Shown here: one piece after another, positions 3,882-62,931 of the stretch
Numbering within the stretch: position 1 is the stretch's first letter
Layout of the letters: every line of letters starts with the position of its first letter
DNA from: Minisyncoccota bacterium
GTDB lineage: Bacteria; Patescibacteriota; Minisyncoccia; Phycocordibacterales; UBA5272
Length of the DNA stretch: 64,000 nt
NCBI GenBank assembly: GCA_041651055.1
Contig: JBAZJW010000001.1
Span: 691,702-755,701, forward strand
Direction of reading: 5' to 3'
Notes under the pieces: generated by a model
The model's database searches: none
Told to the model about the DNA's origin: nothing
The model's input: the letters and a program-made list of their open reading frames with translations, nothing else
Translations under genes and position numbers: made by a program

Positions 3882-4077
3882 CGCTATGTGCCTCATAAAT
3901 AATAAGCTTAAAGTCTTCCCAAAAAGCACAATTCGTGCTAGAATAACCACATTCATCCAATCGGGCAAATCAGGATTTGGACACCTGAGCATATCACTTC
4001 GAGCATAATTGACGCTTACCAAACAGGTATTTCGGAGAAGAGATAATGTGGCACGAGGCAAATGTATTATTAAACGC

Positions 4078-4170
4078 AGATTTTAGATTTTAGATTTTGG
4101 ACTTTAGATATATTGCATAAAGTAATGTATCGAGTCTCATCTAAAATCTAAAGTCTAATCTCTAACATCT
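4078..4170. repeat. Palindromic intergenic element built from 7-bp TAGATTT / AAATCTA units (family copy 1), abutting rpsB start codon
   Basis: Left arm agattttagattttagattttggactttagat. Right arm atctaaaatctaaagtctaatctctaacatct ends directly at the ATG 4171. Confidence 0.7.
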
Positions 4171-6907: not shown

Positions 6908-8170
6908 ATGATTGCTTCTATTTTACAAGGGCTCATGTATCCGTTCTTGTTTTTGTCTATGTATTTTCAAGTGCTTCTGTTAATATCTTTTTTTGAAAAT
7001 AAACGACGCATTAAACGTGAAGAAGACCATGAGGTGAAGGTATATCCGACGGCAACCGTTGCTGTGCCGTGTTGGAATGAAGAGCGGACACTCGCAGCGA
7101 CACTTGATTCATTACTTTCTCTTGAATATCCAAAAGACAAACTTTCTATTGTCGTCGTTGATGATGGGAGTACCGACAACACGCTTGCAATAGCGAGGGC
7201 ATACGAGCAATCACACAAGGATCAGATTACAGTGCTTACTAAAGAAAATGGTGGCAAGCATACGGCGGTGAACATGGCTCTCGAAAGATCAAATAGTGAA
7301 CTTTTTGGATGCCTCGATGCTGATTCATTTGTTACACCGACAACACTTAGTGTTATTGTTTCTTATTTTGATGCAGACCCTAAGGTTATGGCTGTGACTC
7401 CATGTATTCACATTCGTAAACCAAAAACACTTATTCAGCGCATGCAGGCGATTGAGTATTTGATGGGAGTATTTTTGCGAAAGGCATACGGTTCGCTTGA
7501 TGCTATTCAGGTGACACCTGGCCCATTTTCTTTTTTCCGTCGTGAGATTTTTGCGACAATTGGGAATTATCATAAGGCGCACAATACAGAAGATTTTGAA
7601 ATTACGTTACGTATGCATAGGGCTCACATGAAAATTGTGAACTCACACAAGGCGCTCGTGTACACCGTGGGTCCAGAAACTGCGAAAGGATTCTTTTATC
7701 AGCGTCTTAGATGGGCTCGGGGATTTCTTGAAAATTCACTTGACTACAAAGAATTATTTTTCAAAAAAGAATATGGAAACTTCGGCATGTTTACCCTACC
7801 GATGGCCTTCTTATTCTTTTTTTATGGACTCTATGCGGCTCTTTTCTCATACTACAGCATACTTTCTTCTGTGAGCACATCTGTGAAAAAGTGGTTGACT
7901 GTTGGCTTTCATCCACATATTCCAACCTTTGATATTTTTTATCTGAATACAACAGTCATGTCATTTATTATTATGGTGATGTTGACTATGTTTTTGCTTG
8001 TGCTTTATATCGGTAATACACTTTCAGATGATAGACAGGAATTTTACCGTAACTTCCCACTCTTCTTTATCCTTTACCCACTCTTTGTTCCGCTCTTTTT
8101 GGGGCGAGCTATAGCAGATACATTTATGAAGAGAAAGAATGAGTGGGTTCTGCAGGATACCAAAAAATAG
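6908..8170 (+). CDS. Family-2 glycosyltransferase, processive (cellulose/chitin-synthase-like) with C-terminal membrane domain
   Basis: VVVDDGSTDNT, GCLDADS (DxD) and QRLRWARG (QxxRW) motifs; multiple C-terminal TM helices. Confidence 0.75.
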   Translation: MIASILQGLMYPFLFLSMYFQVLLLISFFENKRRIKREEDHEVKVYPTATVAVPCWNEERTLAATLDSLLSLEYPKDKLSIVVVDDGSTDNTLAIARAYEQSHKDQITVLTKENGGKHTAVNMALERSNSELFGCLDADSFVTPTTLSVIVSYFDADPKVMAVTPCIHIRKPKTLIQRMQAIEYLMGVFLRKAYGSLDAIQVTPGPFSFFRREIFATIGNYHKAHNTEDFEITLRMHRAHMKIVNSHKALVYTVGPETAKGFFYQRLRWARGFLENSLDYKELFFKKEYGNFGMFTLPMAFLFFFYGLYAALFSYYSILSSVSTSVKKWLTVGFHPHIPTFDIFYLNTTVMSFIIMVMLTMFLLVLYIGNTLSDDRQEFYRNFPLFFILYPLFVPLFLGRAIADTFMKRKNEWVLQDTKK

Positions 8171-8271
8171 ATTTTAGACTTTAGAGATTAGATGTTAGAT
8201 TATTCAGCACGACAAGAAGAGAGTATGTATTTGTATGACTCTAAAATCCAAAATCTAATATCTAAAGTCTT
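8168..8271. repeat. TAGATTT-unit palindromic element (family copy 2); its first TAG is the GT2 stop codon
   Basis: Left arm tagattttagactttagagattagatgttagatta; right arm ctctaaaatccaaaatctaatatctaaagtctt. Confidence 0.7.
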
Positions 8272-8294: not shown

Positions 8295-9107
8295 ATGACC
8301 GGCCATTTTCACCCTATAACAAAGGCAATAGACAAAATCTCTCGCATCTTTACTGAGATTGGTTTTGACGTAGTCGATGGCCCCGAACTTGAAAGTGAAT
8401 GGTACAACTTTGATGCCTTAAACGTGCCGCGAGACCATCCATCACGTGATATGCAGGATACGTTTTGGATTAAAGAAAGTAGCCTTGCTGAACGTTCTAT
8501 GACTGAGGCGGAGAAGAAAGTTCTTGCACAAGGTCTCTCGCTTGGACATGTGCTCCGTACACATACGTCCGGTGTACAGGTTCGTACTATTGAACGTTGG
8601 ATTAGAGAAGGAAAAGAATTTCCTTTGGCGGTGATTGTTCCTGGCAAGATATATAGAAATGAAGCGACAGATGCTCGTCATGAAGCACAATTCTTTCAAG
8701 TAGAAGGGTTAATGATTGGTAAAGATGTAACGCTTGCGAACTTGAAAGGTTTGCTAGAACATTTCTTTACAAAGTTTCTTGAGAAACATGTGGAGGTACG
8801 TTTTCGGTCATCTTTTTTTCCATTCACTGAGCCAAGTGTAGAGGTGGATATGCAATGCTTTAAGTGTGAAGGAACAGGGAAGATAGAGGGAAAGCAATGT
8901 CCTCTTTGTTCAGGATCAGGGTGGATTGAAATCATGGGTGCAGGAATGGTACATCCACAGGTGTTACAAAACGCAGGACTCAATGCACAAGAATACCAAG
9001 GGTTCGCATTCGGCGCAGGGCTTGACCGTCTCGTGATGCTCGAGACGGGCATTGATGATATTCGCATGCTGTATAATGGTGACTTGCGTTTGGTAAATCA
9101 ATTTTAA
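8295..9107 (+). CDS. pheS: Phenylalanine--tRNA ligase alpha subunit (compact, 270 aa, with inserted Cys4 zinc ribbon)
   Basis: Class II motifs (FPFTEPSVEVD, GWIEIMGAGMVHPQVL, GFAFGAGLDRL); insert CFKCEGTGKIEGKQCPLCSGSG. Confidence 0.9.
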   Translation: MTGHFHPITKAIDKISRIFTEIGFDVVDGPELESEWYNFDALNVPRDHPSRDMQDTFWIKESSLAERSMTEAEKKVLAQGLSLGHVLRTHTSGVQVRTIERWIREGKEFPLAVIVPGKIYRNEATDARHEAQFFQVEGLMIGKDVTLANLKGLLEHFFTKFLEKHVEVRFRSSFFPFTEPSVEVDMQCFKCEGTGKIEGKQCPLCSGSGWIEIMGAGMVHPQVLQNAGLNAQEYQGFAFGAGLDRLVMLETGIDDIRMLYNGDLRLVNQF

Positions 9108-25268: not shown

Positions 25269-25355
25269 GGAGGCGTCGCATAGTGGTCTAGTGCACTACC
25301 TTGGAAAGGTAGCAACGGGGTAACCTGTTCGAGAGTTCAAATCTCTCCGCCTCCG
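25269..25355 (+). tRNA. tRNA-Ser (anticodon GGA), long variable arm, discriminator G
   Basis: Hand fold: acceptor GGAGGCG/CGCCTCC, 3-bp D-stem with GG loop, anticodon stem CTACC/GGTAG with loop TTGGAAA, variable arm about 17 nt, T-arm GAGAG-TTCAAAT-CTCTC. Confidence 0.7.
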
Positions 25356-25384
25356 CTTTGAAAACAATCTGTTCTACTTTTTTT

Positions 25385-25441
25385 CGGAGAAAGGTAGCAA
25401 CGGGGTAACCTGTTCGAGAGTTCAAATCTCTCCGCCTCCGC
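25385..25441 (+). repeat. Direct duplicate of the 3' half of tRNA-Ser(GGA), starting inside the anticodon loop
   Basis: GGAGAAAGGTAGCAACGGGGTAACCTGTTCGAGAGTTCAAATCTCTCCGCCTCCGC is identical to the tRNA from the anticodon stem 3' strand to the 3' end. Confidence 0.75.
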
Positions 25442-25449
25442 AAAATCGC

Positions 25450-25636
25450 GAGCGTACTCGCGACCAGATTTTGCTAGTGCATTTCAAGGAGCGTACTCGC
25501 GACTATGAATATGCCTCCGCAAACAAATATAAAAAGACTACTAAAATCAGAAGTTTATTTTGTGTGAGCGTACTCGCGACCAGATTTTGCTAGTGCATTT
25601 CAAGGAGCGTACTCGCGACTATGAATATGCCTCCGC
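25450..25636 (+). repeat. Two 71-bp tandem units (period 116 bp), each ending in tRNA-acceptor-like GCCTCCGC
   Basis: Unit gagcgtactcgcgaccagattttgctagtgcatttcaaggagcgtactcgcgactatgaatatgcctccgc at 25450..25520 and again at 25566..25636; internal 15-mer gagcgtactcgcgac twice per unit. Confidence 0.8.
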
Positions 25637-25663
25637 TCTGAAAAGAATCAATTTACTTTGTGT

Positions 25664-25747
25664 CGGAGAAAGGTGATAAGGTGAAAGCCTTCACGGGTTC
25701 GAATCCCGCACCCTCTGCTTTGCTCGGGAGAAAGGTAGTAATAGGCG
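25664..25747 (+). repeat. Two further anticodon-loop-to-3'-end tRNA fragments (a different Ser/Leu-type tRNA, then a diverged copy)
   Basis: CGGAGAAAGGTGATAAGGTGAAAGCCTTCACGGGTTCGAATCCCGCACCCTCTGC, then CGGGAGAAAGGTAGTAATAGGCG; all fragments begin with the same GGAGAAAGG junction. Confidence 0.6.
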
Positions 25748-25829
25748 ATTTTTAAGCGTAAAAATCGCGTCGAAATTAGCAAATTTCGACGTAAATAAAT
25801 CGCACTGTCTCCTTTAAAAATAACCCTTC

Positions 25830-51643: not shown

Positions 51644-51794
51644 TCTTTATCCAGGCTCGGCTATGAGTTTCATCTTGTCGCTCTTAGCTCCTTGAACTGT
51701 ACCCATTCAGCTTATTGTAGGACACGCAGATATCGTACTGTCCAAGCACAAAATACAAAAAGCGATATCATATGACATCGCTTTTTGTATTTTG

Positions 51795-51867
51795 TGCTTG
51801 GACCCAGGCTCGAACTGGGGACCTATTCCTCTTCAGGGAAGCGCTCTACCAACTGAGCTATCCAAGC
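51795..51867 (-). tRNA. tRNA-Phe (anticodon GAA)
   Basis: Minus-strand fold: acceptor GCTTGGA/TCCAAGC, D GCTC-AGTTGGTA-GAGC, anticodon loop CTGAAGA, T-arm CCCAG-TTCGAGC-CTGGG, discriminator A. Confidence 0.8.
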
Positions 51868-52508: not shown

Positions 52509-52580
52509 GCCCTCGTAGTTCAATGGATAGAACAGTTTCGTCCTAAGAAATTGATGTGGGTCCGATTCCTGCCGAGGGCA
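52509..52580 (+). tRNA. tRNA-Arg (anticodon CCT) with atypical T-arm
   Basis: Acceptor GCCCTCG/CGAGGGC, D GTTC-AATGGATA-GAAC, anticodon stem GTTTC/GAAAT with loop GTCCTAA. T-stem GTGGG/CCTGC has two G-U pairs, and the T-loop is TCCGATT (C at the usually invariant U55). Confidence 0.6.
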
Positions 52581-52765
52581 CTATAAGTAAAACACCTTCA
52601 AGTAATCTTGTGGGTGTTTTACTTATAGCTGTTTATAGGAACAAGTTAGCCTGCGCTGACTTGTGACAGGAATCGGATACGGGGTCGAGGAGTCTCCTGT
52701 TTCGAGTGAAGCGAGAAACGAGACGAGGTGACCGAAAATGTACTCATGGTTCCTGCCGAGGGCAC
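52581..52765 (+). repeat. tRNA-Arg-associated element A: 16-bp perfect hairpin, CUGC-loop hairpin, 68-nt conserved core, then 16-bp direct repeat of the tRNA 3' end
   Basis: Hairpin CTATAAGTAAAACACC...GGTGTTTTACTTATAG at 52581..52628; GTTAGC-CTGC-GCTGAC at 52645..52660; core at 52666..52733; ttcctgccgagggcac at 52566..52581 and again at 52750..52765. Confidence 0.75.
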
Positions 52766-56596: not shown

Positions 56597-57127
56597 ATGC
56601 TAAGCAAACAGTCAACCCTCCTCAAAAAAGGATCAAAGAAAGTCATCGAAAAAGTGAAGAAACTCTCGCCGAATACTAAGCAATTACCAGACCACCACTT
56701 TAAGGCAGTGAAAGTGAAGCGTGGATTGGATGGGCTCGGTCTTTTTGCAGAAGAACAAATCAAAAAAGGGGAAATGATTATCGAATATATCGGCAATATT
56801 CTTACCAAAGAAGAGGCGGATAAGAAGACGACAAGTCAGTATCTTTTTGAGGTGAGTAGAAATAAAACTATTGACGGAACGCCGAGATGGAATATTGCAC
56901 GATATTGTAATCATGCGTGCAACGAAGCGGCGAATGCCGAGAGTGATATCACAAAGGGTCGCGTCATCATTAAGGCGATCAAGACCATTAATATAGGCGA
57001 TGAGATTGTGTATGATTACGGAGAAGAGTTTGTGAAAGAGCACATCGCACCGCACGGATGTCGATGTAAAGCAAAAAAGCACGCGTATGGAATGGAGGGA
57101 GGAGATGAGTCAGATGTTAGAAATTAG
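56597..57127 (+). CDS. SET-domain protein-lysine methyltransferase
   Basis: GLGLFAEEQIKKGEMIIEYIG, NHACNEAAN (NHSC-type motif), GDEIVYDYGEEF, and post-SET-like CRCKAK cysteines. Confidence 0.75.
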   Translation: MLSKQSTLLKKGSKKVIEKVKKLSPNTKQLPDHHFKAVKVKRGLDGLGLFAEEQIKKGEMIIEYIGNILTKEEADKKTTSQYLFEVSRNKTIDGTPRWNIARYCNHACNEAANAESDITKGRVIIKAIKTINIGDEIVYDYGEEFVKEHIAPHGCRCKAKKHAYGMEGGDESDVRN

Positions 57128-57243
57128 ATTTTAGACTTTAGAGTATACAAATACGATATGAGACAAAAAGCGGCCACAAAGTGGCCGCTTTTTGTGTTTT
57201 TGCGTTGTCCTCTAACGTCTAAAATCTAATACCTAAAATCTAT
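57125..57243. repeat. TAGATTT-unit palindromic element (family copy 3) with an embedded terminator hairpin; its first TAG is the SET gene stop codon
   Basis: Left arm tagattttagactttagag at 57125..57143; centre AAAAAGCGGCCAC-AAA-GTGGCCGCTTTTTG; right arm cctctaacgtctaaaatctaatacctaaaatctat. Confidence 0.7.
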
Positions 57244-60419: not shown

Positions 60420-60515
60420 AAGCTAAAGGACGGAAGCTAGAAGAGAGAAGTTGGAAGTGGAAAGCTGGAAGCGGGGAAAATACAAAACAAGAAGTGACGC
60501 CGTAGGCGCAGCTTC

Positions 60516-60575
60516 TTGTGCTATAATTTTAGTATCCGCATTATCTAATGTCTAAAAGCTAATATCTAACATCTG
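60516..60575 (+). promoter_or_regulatory. Extended -10 promoter TTTGTGCTATAATTTT followed by a single TAGATTT-family arm abutting the murF ATG
   Basis: TGcTATAAT at 60519..60527. The same 15-mer plus flank recurs upstream of tRNA-Glu at 62547..62563. Arm atctaatgtctaaaagctaatatctaacatct at 60544..60575. Confidence 0.55.
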
Positions 60576-61882: not shown

Positions 61883-62249
61883 ATCTGAATATTTAGCGCA
61901 TCACTTTGTTTCTTCAAGATGTTGGCTTGTTAACAATGTTATATGTATTGCCCAGGCACACTCCACCCTCTTGTTTTACGTAGAGCCCCCTCTAAGTTGC
62001 CTACCGTTTCTTGCTCGAAGCCTTTCTGCATTTACTGCTACAGAACTTTACACTTTCCCAGTCCTCACGTTCCTTAAAGCTCTTCATGGTATTGAGATCT
62101 ATTTTACAAACAACACATTTCTTATCTATTTTTTGAGTGGTCATGAAGATAGTATACAGTTTTCAGTCGACAGTTTACAGCGAATGCTTTTCCGTGCAAA
62201 ATAGGGGATTTGGCATTTCAAGAATGAAGCAAACAGAAATGAAACCATA

Positions 62250-62462
62250 TTATTTCAAATATCTAGAATTATCTTTCTCACAGTCATTTCTTGATGGATA
62301 GATTTTTTCAAATAATTCTGGGCGAGTTTTTCTTACCTCTTTCATTCTAAAAAAACATTTCTTACTGTAATAATCAAAATAATAAAAACTTGATTTTTTA
62401 AATAAAAAATAGGTTCCTGATAAAATAAAGACACCAATCAGCAAGTATGTTACTTTTTTCAT
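62250..62462 (-). CDS. Possible small secreted/membrane protein (70 aa)
   Basis: Signal-peptide-like N-terminus MKKVTYLLIGVFILSG; AT-rich context; weak. Confidence 0.3.
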   Translation of the reverse strand: MKKVTYLLIGVFILSGTYFLFKKSSFYYFDYYSKKCFFRMKEVRKTRPELFEKIYPSRNDCEKDNSRYLK

Positions 62463-62572
62463 ATATTACAGAATTGATTATATCATGCGACCTTGCGATG
62501 GATGCGCAGGGTCGACTAAAATACAGCTCAGTGCAAAATAGGGGATTTGTGCTATAATTTTCTTACTTTATC

Positions 62573-62644
62573 GGCCTTATCGTCTATCGGTTAGGACACA
62601 GGCTTCTCATGCCTGGAAGCGGAGTTCGATTCTCCGTAAGGTCA
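62573..62644 (+). tRNA. tRNA-Glu (anticodon CTC)
   Basis: Acceptor GGCCTTA/TAAGGTC (one G-U), D GTC-loop-GAC, anticodon stem CAGGC/GCCTG with loop TTCTCAT, T-arm CGGAG-TTCGATT-CTCCG, discriminator A. Confidence 0.75.
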
Positions 62645-62792
62645 CATCAACAAAAATACACAGGTTCTTCCTGTGTATTTTTGTTGACTGTGATCAGTAG
62701 AAGCAAACCACCTGCGTGGTTTGCGGGAGAATCGAATACGGGGTCGCGGAACTACTTCGAGCAAAGCGAGGTAGTTCTGTGACCGGTTCTCC
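62645..62792 (+). repeat. tRNA-Glu-associated element B (second copy of the family at 52581..52765)
   Basis: 17-bp perfect hairpin CAACAAAAATACACAGG-TTCTTC-CCTGTGTATTTTTGTTG at 62649..62688; GCAAACCAC-CTGC-GTGGTTTGC at 62703..62724; 68-nt core at 62725..62792. Confidence 0.75.
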
Positions 62793-62931
62793 TCACGTTG
62801 TATTTGGCACTCCATTTCCACCCCAAAATCCAAAAAAGTCACCTAAAGTCTAGTTTCCTGAAATACCTTGGTATATAACCCTTATTTATGTCCTTTATAT
62901 TGACAAATAGGCTATTTCCGTGTTGTAATAC

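Follow-up and report, generated by a model that had tools for sequence, protein, structure and literature searches.

What is the short structured element that directly follows the tRNA-Glu gene of this Minisyncoccota bacterium, and why does part of it read like the gene in front of it? The element (element B) occupies positions 62646-62797 of a 64,000-nt stretch of contig JBAZJW010000001.1 (the window, within which all positions are counted unless a locus is named) and consists of a 17-bp hairpin, then a 9-bp hairpin with a CUGC loop, then a conserved core hairpin. Labels from L005 to L070 denote related contigs and loci. Element B is perhaps best taken, at slightly less than even confidence, as a copy of a small, non-autonomous, structure-dependent integrative module specific for the 3' ends of tRNA and transfer-messenger RNA (tmRNA) genes. 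The central feature is an arm complementary to the local tRNA, which the first-pass annotation of this DNA had not noticed. The parts of the locus were as follows:

62573-62645, plus strand: tRNA-Glu(CTC), identified by ARAGORN; Rfam tRNA score 53 bits
62627-62645, plus strand: X1, the final 19 nt of tRNA-Glu (CGATTCTCCGTAAGGTCAC), to which the arms of element B are matched
62648-62686, plus strand: hairpin 1, a perfect 17-bp stem with a 5-nt loop (CAACAAAAATACACAGG/TTCTT/CCTGTGTATTTTTGTTG)
62687-62702, plus strand: segment 1, a 16-nt linker (ACTGTGATCAGTAGAA) that is weakly antisense to the acceptor 3' strand (GTGATC against GGTCAC)
62703-62724, plus strand: hairpin 2 (P2), a 9-bp stem with a CUGC tetraloop (GCAAACCAC/CUGC/GTGGTTTGC)
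62725-62792, plus strand: the 68-nt core as first delimited, ending GTGACCGGTTCTCC
62725-62736, plus strand: segment 2 (GGGAGAATCGAA), the 5' strand of closing stem P3
62737-62784, plus strand: the conserved core, made up of the junction TACGG and hairpin P4 (GGTCGCGGAAC...GTTCTGTGACC), with inner hairpin CTTCG/AGCAAAG/CGAGG
62784-62797, plus strand: X2, a degenerate sense copy of the tRNA 3' part from T-loop position C56 and the 3' strand of P3

Coordinates and sequence bore out the module order first described for this copy, namely a 17-bp perfect hairpin, a CUGC hairpin and a 68-nt core, in the same order as in a second copy (element A). Hairpin 1 is laid out as an A-tract, a stem and a T-tract and resembles a bidirectional intrinsic terminator; its upper stem ACACAGG/CCTGTGT is followed by ATTTTTGTTG, and the T run itself pairs with the A-tract. 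It was not called by a simple consensus terminator scan, and its terminator role is putative. Between hairpins 1 and 2 there was no -10/-35 pair that could serve as a promoter of the module's own. Two small open reading frames (ORFs), at 62609-62782 and 62716-62853, begin inside the tRNA or the stems and are not conserved, and they were dismissed.

Arms matched to the adjacent tRNA

Each element had the same layout of antisense arm, conserved core and sense arm, with the two arms pairing as the closing stem. In element B the T-loop and T-stem 3' strand of tRNA-Glu (TTCGATTCTCC) recur in exact reverse complement as the first 11 nt of the 68-nt core (GGAGAATCGAA). X2 reads CGGTTCTCC against CGATTCTCC of the tRNA, then TCACG; the two are identical at 8/9 positions and diverge afterwards. 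The UUCUCC at the end of the core had been said to echo the tRNA-Glu 3' strand, and this echo is no coincidence because it is the remnant of a sense copy of the T-loop/T-stem 3' strand, such a copy being found in all members.

Using the longest exact match to the last 24 nt of each tRNA, the arms of 12 copies were compared with cognate and non-cognate tRNAs. Antisense matches averaged 9.8 nt for the cognate tRNA (an undercount by one, the sequence having been cut) and 5.5 nt for non-cognate tRNAs, while sense copies averaged 13.3 nt and 5.0 nt, respectively. The tRNA-Glu T-loop of the window, TTCGATT, is accompanied by the arms GAATCGAA and GGTTC. The T-loop TTCGACT (L005 and L064) goes with the arms GAGTCGAA and GACTC, L005 showing the matching A-to-G change, and TTCAAAT (L062) with GATTTGAA and GTGACC|AAATCC.

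The best-preserved copies contained a second antisense segment 5' of the CUGC hairpin, complementary to the acceptor 3' strand and the discriminator base: GTGACCTCAC in L037, GGCGGAGGGA in L044 and GCGGAGACGG in L064, each set against its own tRNA and each complementing the acceptor 3' strand exactly over 10 nt. The two antisense segments jointly cover 20-22 nt of the tRNA 3' part, split by hairpin 2. The second segment is Watson-Crick where the tRNA acceptor stem has a G.U pair, which makes it the complement of the 3' strand instead of a 5'-strand copy.

The sense copy always started at T-loop C56 and reached the tRNA end over 16-19 nt. Exact direct repeats measured 16/16 nt in element A, 19 nt in L012, L056 and L062, and 16 nt in L044, L064 and L066; in L015 the sense copy extended through the next hairpin, giving 37 nt with one mismatch. 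Site-specific integration into a tRNA or tmRNA gene classically leaves a direct repeat that spans the T-loop and everything up to the 3' end, and a block of identity of this kind is said, after Williams in 2002, to be expected for T-loop-class integration into tRNA genes. The family has this repeat from the T-loop flanking the insert; the repeat of element B is degenerate.

In a separate pair of loci, L064 and L065 (11468-11555), sequences were identical over 341 nt bar three changes, all in the 3' part of tRNA-Ser(GCT). These were a compensated T-stem pair and one acceptor base, and the module arms keep the L064 version.

A conserved, strand-specific fold

The element B module alone folded to -57.3 kcal/mol (z = -7.35), the opposite strand to -40.9 kcal/mol, and z reached -12.0 with the tRNA included, values well outside chance expectation. 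Structure was tested on an alignment of the 12 copies covering hairpin 2, the closing stem P3 and the core stem P4. Altogether, 88.6% of cells paired, against 34-48% with the partners slid; 14/28 pairs changed on both sides, and 0/500 shuffles reached the observed values. Covariation was seen in seven of the nine pairs of hairpin 2, the loop of which was CTGC or CTGT in almost all copies. P4 contained a G.U pair (alignment columns 60-104) that was invariant in 12/12 copies, and the adjacent pair (columns 62-102) varied among GC, GU and AU, being A-U in L070.

Between elements A and B, compensatory changes occurred in the CUGC hairpin, the closing stem (CAGGAA/TTCCTG vs GGAGAA/TTCTCC) and the core hairpin. 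The proposal that element B is a second copy sharing its fold with element A is thus supported, the fold that they share extending far past their sequence identity. The tRNA-Glu copies of the window, L005, L018 and L064 share hairpin 1, and compensatory changes set them apart in hairpin 2, P4 and the arms; the gene flanking the latter three copies is just 75-85% identical to that of the window. Compensatory changes across copies, together with the strand-specific fold, indicate that the structure is maintained, and on the tRNA-sense strand only. A gene on the opposite strand was considered and rejected, as G.U pairs become A.C there and the fold is 16 kcal/mol weaker.

Change was slow in the closest strain. 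L070, which is 94% identical, had three changes in the 152 nt of hairpin 1 and the module, one of them a G.U pair becoming A-U, and hairpin 1 was 100% conserved; the adjoining spacer was 94.5% and the adjoining gene 93.7% identical. Under DNA parameters, the unit beginning at C56 folded as two hairpins of single-stranded DNA (z = -11.8).

Other copies in the window and beyond

Two more copies were located in the window, one complete (element A) and one decayed:

52582-52765, plus strand: element A, behind tRNA-Arg(CCT) at 52509-52581, with the module order of element B
52581-52628, plus strand: hairpin 1 of element A
52641-52664, plus strand: P2 of element A
52667-52677, plus strand: segment 2 of element A (CAGGAATCGGA), the reverse complement of TCCGATTCCTG in tRNA-Arg
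52678-52733, plus strand: core of element A (element A scored 72 bits)
52734-52749, plus strand: 16-nt GTACTC box of element A
52750-52765, plus strand: X2 of element A (TTCCTGCCGAGGGCAC), identical to the tRNA-Arg 3' end at 16/16 positions
51644-51793, minus strand: decayed third copy behind tRNA-Phe (51794-51867, minus strand), with hairpin 1, an acceptor antisense segment, a degenerate CUGC hairpin, a decayed core and a sense remnant

In the tRNA-Phe copy GTGCTTGGAC is intact and antisense to the acceptor 3' strand GTCCAAGCAC, and the sense remnant reads CGAGCCTGG; the covariance model with filters off gave it 9 bits (E = 0.007 within 351 nt). No further full copy beyond A and B was present in the window. 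The GTACTC box is related to one in the tRNA-Ser locus and in L024 and was rejected as a general part of the module.

About 20 further copies were found in Saccharibacteria-type contigs, and all copies lay directly 3' of, and on the same strand as, a tRNA gene (Glu, Arg, Val, Thr, Ser-GCT, Ser-CGA, Ser-ACT or Phe) or a tmRNA gene. A pattern derived from the core was scanned against species-representative genomes and metagenome contigs, with roughly 8 or more matches per collection expected by chance on our own arithmetic. The scans returned 43 matches, of which some 35 were chance matches in GC-rich coding DNA and eight were real: L005, L012, L015, L018, L020, L024, L033 and L037. Loci orthologous to the downstream gene yielded extra copies (L044, L056, L062/63, L064/65 with two copies, and L066), the synteny secA-murF-...-glucosaminidase-like-mscL being common to the window and the related loci. 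The element is also carried by sample SRR8542065, whose contig L069 is 100% identical.

The L024 copy sits behind the tmRNA gene next to smpB (tmRNA confirmed by Rfam at 92 bits). Directly after this copy, which has the core of the family described so far (type A), positions 8455-8560 (minus strand) of L024 hold the 3' end of another tRNA with CCA (TTCCGCCAGCGTACCA), followed by a second, shorter core whose antisense arm (GCGGAATCGAA) matches that other, CCA-carrying tRNA; the segment looks like a chimeric two-unit array. Element B and the L005 copy form a mosaic pair that shares hairpins 1 and 2 and not the inner hairpin. A tandem array in L015 was rejected, since only a single unit with the 37-nt repeat is present there.

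A second core family (type B) of about 130 nt, GGGAAAGGrGTCGGGGAAAC...TTTCCCGTGG..., showed the same antisense-core-sense layout behind tRNA-Glu and tRNA-Ser genes (L047 6911-7110; L050 13371-13570; and the minus strand of L047 after tRNA-Ser). Its antisense arms were 12-20 nt long, with 17-20 nt perfect in 2/3 copies. The copy behind tRNA-Glu in L047 had a perfect 20-nt antisense arm, and those behind tRNA-Ser in L047 and the L050 group had arms of 12-17 nt.

In Rfam release 15 only tRNAs reached the gathering threshold within the window, and E-value scans of element B, element A, a type B locus and the tRNA-Ser locus gave sub-threshold chance matches only. The type B core had no match in Rfam or IMG/VR. 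The family is not contained in the libraries searched and is apparently undescribed.

Occupied and empty sites

The tRNA-Glu sites of L044, L050, L057 and L060 were empty, with downstream flanks not homologous to the window. Hairpin 1 was absent behind tRNA-Glu in L044, and because empty tRNA-Glu sites are without it, hairpin 1 is taken to have arrived with the insertion. Elsewhere tRNA-Glu was followed by a different core with the same architecture, type B in L047 and a third kind in L062 and L066. From tRNA-Glu to the next conserved gene the interval is a hypervariable island. It spans 0.4 kb in the window; in L044 it reaches 2.3 kb and holds unrelated genes, in L050 it reaches 9 kb and includes an MmeI-type restriction system, and in L060 it contains a large serine recombinase together with a diversity-generating retroelement (DGR). 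In L037 the module stands at the far end of a cargo insertion bearing a 169-aa ORF of unknown family. No functional relationship linked the genes that follow the copies; by Pfam, the neighbours of element B encode RNase_T, HSP20, glutaredoxin, MurF and a glucosaminidase-like protein.

The variable islands behind the tRNA genes of L060, L064 and L050 carry defence-type cargo. The island of L060 (641-7637) holds a large serine recombinase, a methylase, a helicase and a DGR reverse transcriptase with bAvd; that of L064 (12566-15994) a methylase/MutH pair and a large serine recombinase; and that of L050 (950-6715) an MmeI-type enzyme, a DEAD helicase and T5orf172. Variable and defence genes clearly concentrate behind the tRNA genes of Patescibacteria.

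In some lineages tRNA-Glu, with the module if present, is inverted relative to the downstream glucosaminidase-like gene: L018, L060 and L064 encode tRNA-Glu on the minus strand, and the window, L044, L047 and L062 have it on the plus strand. A tRNA-Ser-like gene to which ARAGORN assigned the anticodon ACT adjoins tRNA-Ser(GCT) in several genomes and is a preferred module site (L044 12970-13058; L050 13575-13662; also L056, L060 and L064).

Upstream insertion and other repeats of the window

A 19-mer had been reported to precede tRNA-Glu and to recur upstream. Exactly two sites were recovered for GTGCAAAATAGGGGATTTG, at 62194 and 62531, where 0.02 matches were expected at up to 3 mismatches. 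The two 19-mers had been said to bracket an AT-rich segment with a tiny ORF, which agrees with L070: across window positions 62194-62549 that strain has a single copy of GTGCAAAATAGGGGATTTG and is without the intervening 318 nt. The AT-rich insertion encodes a 70-aa ORF with a hydrophobic N-terminus (62250-62462, minus strand). Comparison with L070 thus shows a real insertion, with a 19-22-bp target duplication, just upstream of the tRNA-Glu -10 box. Of the claim that one promoter drives both this tRNA and murF, the sequence match stood, the box TTTGTGCTATAATTTT lying at 62546 and recurring with one mismatch at 60515, in front of murF. The box is the extended -10 consensus (TGnTATAAT) and also occurs before tRNA-Val in L012, and it is therefore not a shared element.

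The tRNA-Ser(GGA) locus (25269-25780) is an array of tRNA fragments. It comprises a 53-nt exact duplicate of the 3' half from the anticodon loop (25389-25441), two identical 71-nt units (25450-25520 and 25566-25636) and the 3' half of a different tRNA-Ser (~25664-25718). Each 71-nt unit ends in the acceptor 3' strand GCCTCCGC and includes the palindromic box GAGCGTACTCGCGAC twice. This unit type is conserved behind tRNA-Ser genes in L044, L050, L060 and L062 and has no Rfam match.

Inverted repeats of the AGATTTTAGA type flank GC-rich hairpins, e.g., AAAGCGGCGCCGTAGGCGCCGCTT, and form families D1, D2, D4 and D8 (4072-4170; 8155-8270; 57112-57241; 60485-60574). Several gene ends carry such units, which resemble terminators whose long arms are extended by repeats.

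A proposed integrative module and its rivals

The location of the copies, the direct repeat from C56, the cognate arms, the patchy occupancy, the decayed and mosaic copies, the conserved fold and the existence of type B favour an integrative module. The inserted DNA is ordered as follows: from T-loop C56, a tRNA 3' end, the terminator-like hairpin, the reverse-complement arm and the core hairpin, with the second sense copy after it. Entry would occur by site-specific recombination inside the T-loop, so that the element-borne 3' end would now complete the tRNA and the displaced original 3' end would be the remnant GGTTCTCC. The active form may be a folded single strand of DNA or RNA in which the antisense arm pairs with the sense copy. 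This pairing would create a duplex replica of the T-loop-to-acceptor segment of the tRNA, with the CUGC hairpin as a branch and the conserved core as a cap, and a recombinase encoded elsewhere might recognise the fold in the manner of an integron attC site or the folded attP of CTXphi.

Several observations weigh against this integrative module. Element B is intact in L070, the closest strain (94%). The tRNA-Glu copies of the window, L005, L018 and L064 have diverged to a degree similar to the flanking gene and so appear vertically inherited, and movement would be at best rare. No tyrosine recombinase was detected by tblastn with XerD and lambda Int in the window and ~25 related loci, and the only recombinases in the Pfam lists were two large serine recombinases, 3-8 kb away, in two islands. 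Searches by blastn against phage and plasmid collections gave no matches to the element, and neither did two pattern scans of IMG/VR that covered both core types. We infer the steps beyond an insertion with a T-loop repeat, and the folded-att mechanism is put forward by analogy. Lastly, an invariant G.U pair beside a GC/GU/AU exchange is a feature that functional RNAs show more typically than DNA sites do.

This last point belongs to a serious rival, which we regard as possible and yet unlikely, in which read-through from the tRNA promoter would produce the module as a structured non-coding RNA. After excision of the tRNA, hairpin 2, the closing stem and the core hairpin would form a stable RNA whose arms imitate the acceptor/T-stem helix, as a decoy or processing signal, or act as antisense to the tRNA 3' part. 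Such an RNA would explain a strand-specific fold that is always in the tRNA sense, the invariant G.U with its neighbouring exchanges, the slow change of the module (3/152 nt in L070 beside ~94% identical neighbours) and an antisense arm that is perfect where the sense copy has decayed (B, L037 and L064), as if pairing with the tRNA mattered. It fits poorly with a module that sits behind a terminator-like hairpin and is without a promoter of its own, that is missing from close relatives at the same tRNA, with unrelated cores instead, and that decays, e.g., behind tRNA-Phe. The arms are strictly Watson-Crick with no G.U and look templated, not selected; the downstream genes are functionally unrelated, and there is no Rfam family.

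A stronger claim for the arms, and an improbable one in our estimate, is that the antisense arm is a programmable guide: a folded RNA or single-stranded DNA would base-pair to a tRNA or tmRNA gene in its 3' part and so pick its site, and a recombinase acting in trans would complete the insertion. If true, rewritten arms would mean retargeting, cores of types A and B would serve as alternative scaffolds for one trick, and ultra-small bacteria would possess nucleic-acid-guided insertion specific for tRNA genes. Arms that direct targeting would also make the module a compact programmable recognition device.

It is quite unlikely that the copies are inert scars, i.e., attL/attR arms and terminators left by ordinary integrase insertions and alike through related parent elements. 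Fragments of tRNA 3' ends and minimal remnants are indeed common, as in the tRNA-Ser locus at 25269-25780, X2 is often degenerate, and one copy has decayed. Scars would not account for compensatory double changes that keep stems although flanking genes are just 75-85% identical, for antisense arms that follow single-base T-loop differences (B vs L005 and L062), or for an element B that changes more slowly than the adjacent spacer. Ordinary attP arms are also not expected to keep hairpins amid sequence change.

Equally doubtful is the view that template switching during replication produced the arms around the terminator hairpin by correcting and extending a quasi-palindrome. X1, the hairpin and the reverse complement would then make up a palindrome that copying keeps perfect, and the arms would play no part in targeting. 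Type B lends itself to this view, its X1, hairpin 1 and antisense arm forming one palindrome of 17-20 perfect bp, as do the perfectly Watson-Crick arms and the long repeat-extended terminator hairpins elsewhere in the window (families D1, D2 and D8). Template switching is reported to generate and preserve hairpins (PMC8794818). The process leaves the conserved core, the CUGC hairpin within the arm and the downstream sense copy unexplained, as well as the same core behind at least eight tRNA/tmRNA genes, and would at best explain the arm matching.

Three further models were set aside. A retrovirus-like tRNA-primer binding site was rejected because the arm matches the genomic flank and not CCA and is split by a hairpin; a T-loop intron is unnecessary because the upstream tRNA is already complete; and a fragment of a group II intron or retroelement finds no Rfam intron match, the sole reverse transcriptase being that of the DGR in the unrelated L060 island. 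Group II introns have been reported absent from Patescibacteria (PMC13011429).

Whether the integrative module or the read-through RNA is correct, the family would be either a minimal integration site that depends on structure and brings no recombinase with it, or tRNA-linked RNA of a new class, and either would offer a new handle on genome plasticity in Patescibacteria. These bacteria have tiny genomes, and their gene exchange is little understood. The module also accounts for a class of tRNA 3' fragments liable to confuse tRNA annotation.

Comparison with known systems

Integrative elements of the tRNA/tmRNA T-loop (tyrosine-integrase attachment (att) sites, tycheposon-type arrays and cis-mobilizable elements (CIMEs)) resemble the module in their location at tRNA 3' ends and their direct repeat from the T-loop. 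They likewise share a rebuilt tRNA with a displaced old 3' end, a hypervariable island downstream, patchiness and non-autonomous minimal forms; CIMEs keep att sites without an integrase. The module differs from them in being only ~150-190 nt long, with no integrase gene inside its 150-190 nt and none within 10 kb, and in having a covarying hairpin core and an inverted att copy matched to each tRNA. To our knowledge, neither the covarying core nor the tRNA-matched inverted copy is part of described tRNA-targeting elements.

Miniature inverted-repeat transposable elements (MITEs), repetitive extragenic palindromic sequences and their mosaics (REP/BIME), Rickettsia palindromic elements and Correia elements are, like the module, short, hairpin-forming, multi-copy, non-coding and often co-transcribed with their neighbours, with some copies decayed. 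Unlike the module, they have fixed terminal repeats and short fixed target duplications at diverse sites; here the arms differ from copy to copy and follow the adjacent tRNA, and all copies stand behind tRNA/tmRNA genes.

The bridge RNA of IS110 and the omega RNA of TnpB/IscB also place a structured scaffold between target-matching segments, and the 16-19-nt sense segment at the 3' end of the module occupies the place equivalent to the TnpB guide. They differ in that both arms of the module cover one target segment and pair mutually, in its long direct repeat of the target and in the lack of an Rfam match. No DEDD recombinase, TnpB or IscB was found by Pfam on the window neighbours or in the lists for genes within 10 kb (L044-L068).

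With integron attC sites and the attP(+) hairpin of CTXphi, both used as folded single strands (CTXphi through XerCD), the module shares a structure kept while sequence varies and a strand-specific fold. Direct reading of 62687-62797 revealed no RYYYAAC/GTTRRRY pair of attC R boxes, the sole GTT-initial heptamer near the end being GTTCTGT. The module further differs in having no dif-like sequence and no intI/attI platform, in its tRNA gene target and in a spacer (the core) strongly conserved in sequence. As in those systems, cargo is small or absent, and two inverted copies of the recombination sequence with a spacer would fold to mimic a duplex target. For CTXphi, and in spirit for attC, the order predicted after integration is target copy, optional cargo, inverted copy, spacer and target copy, which is the order seen here.

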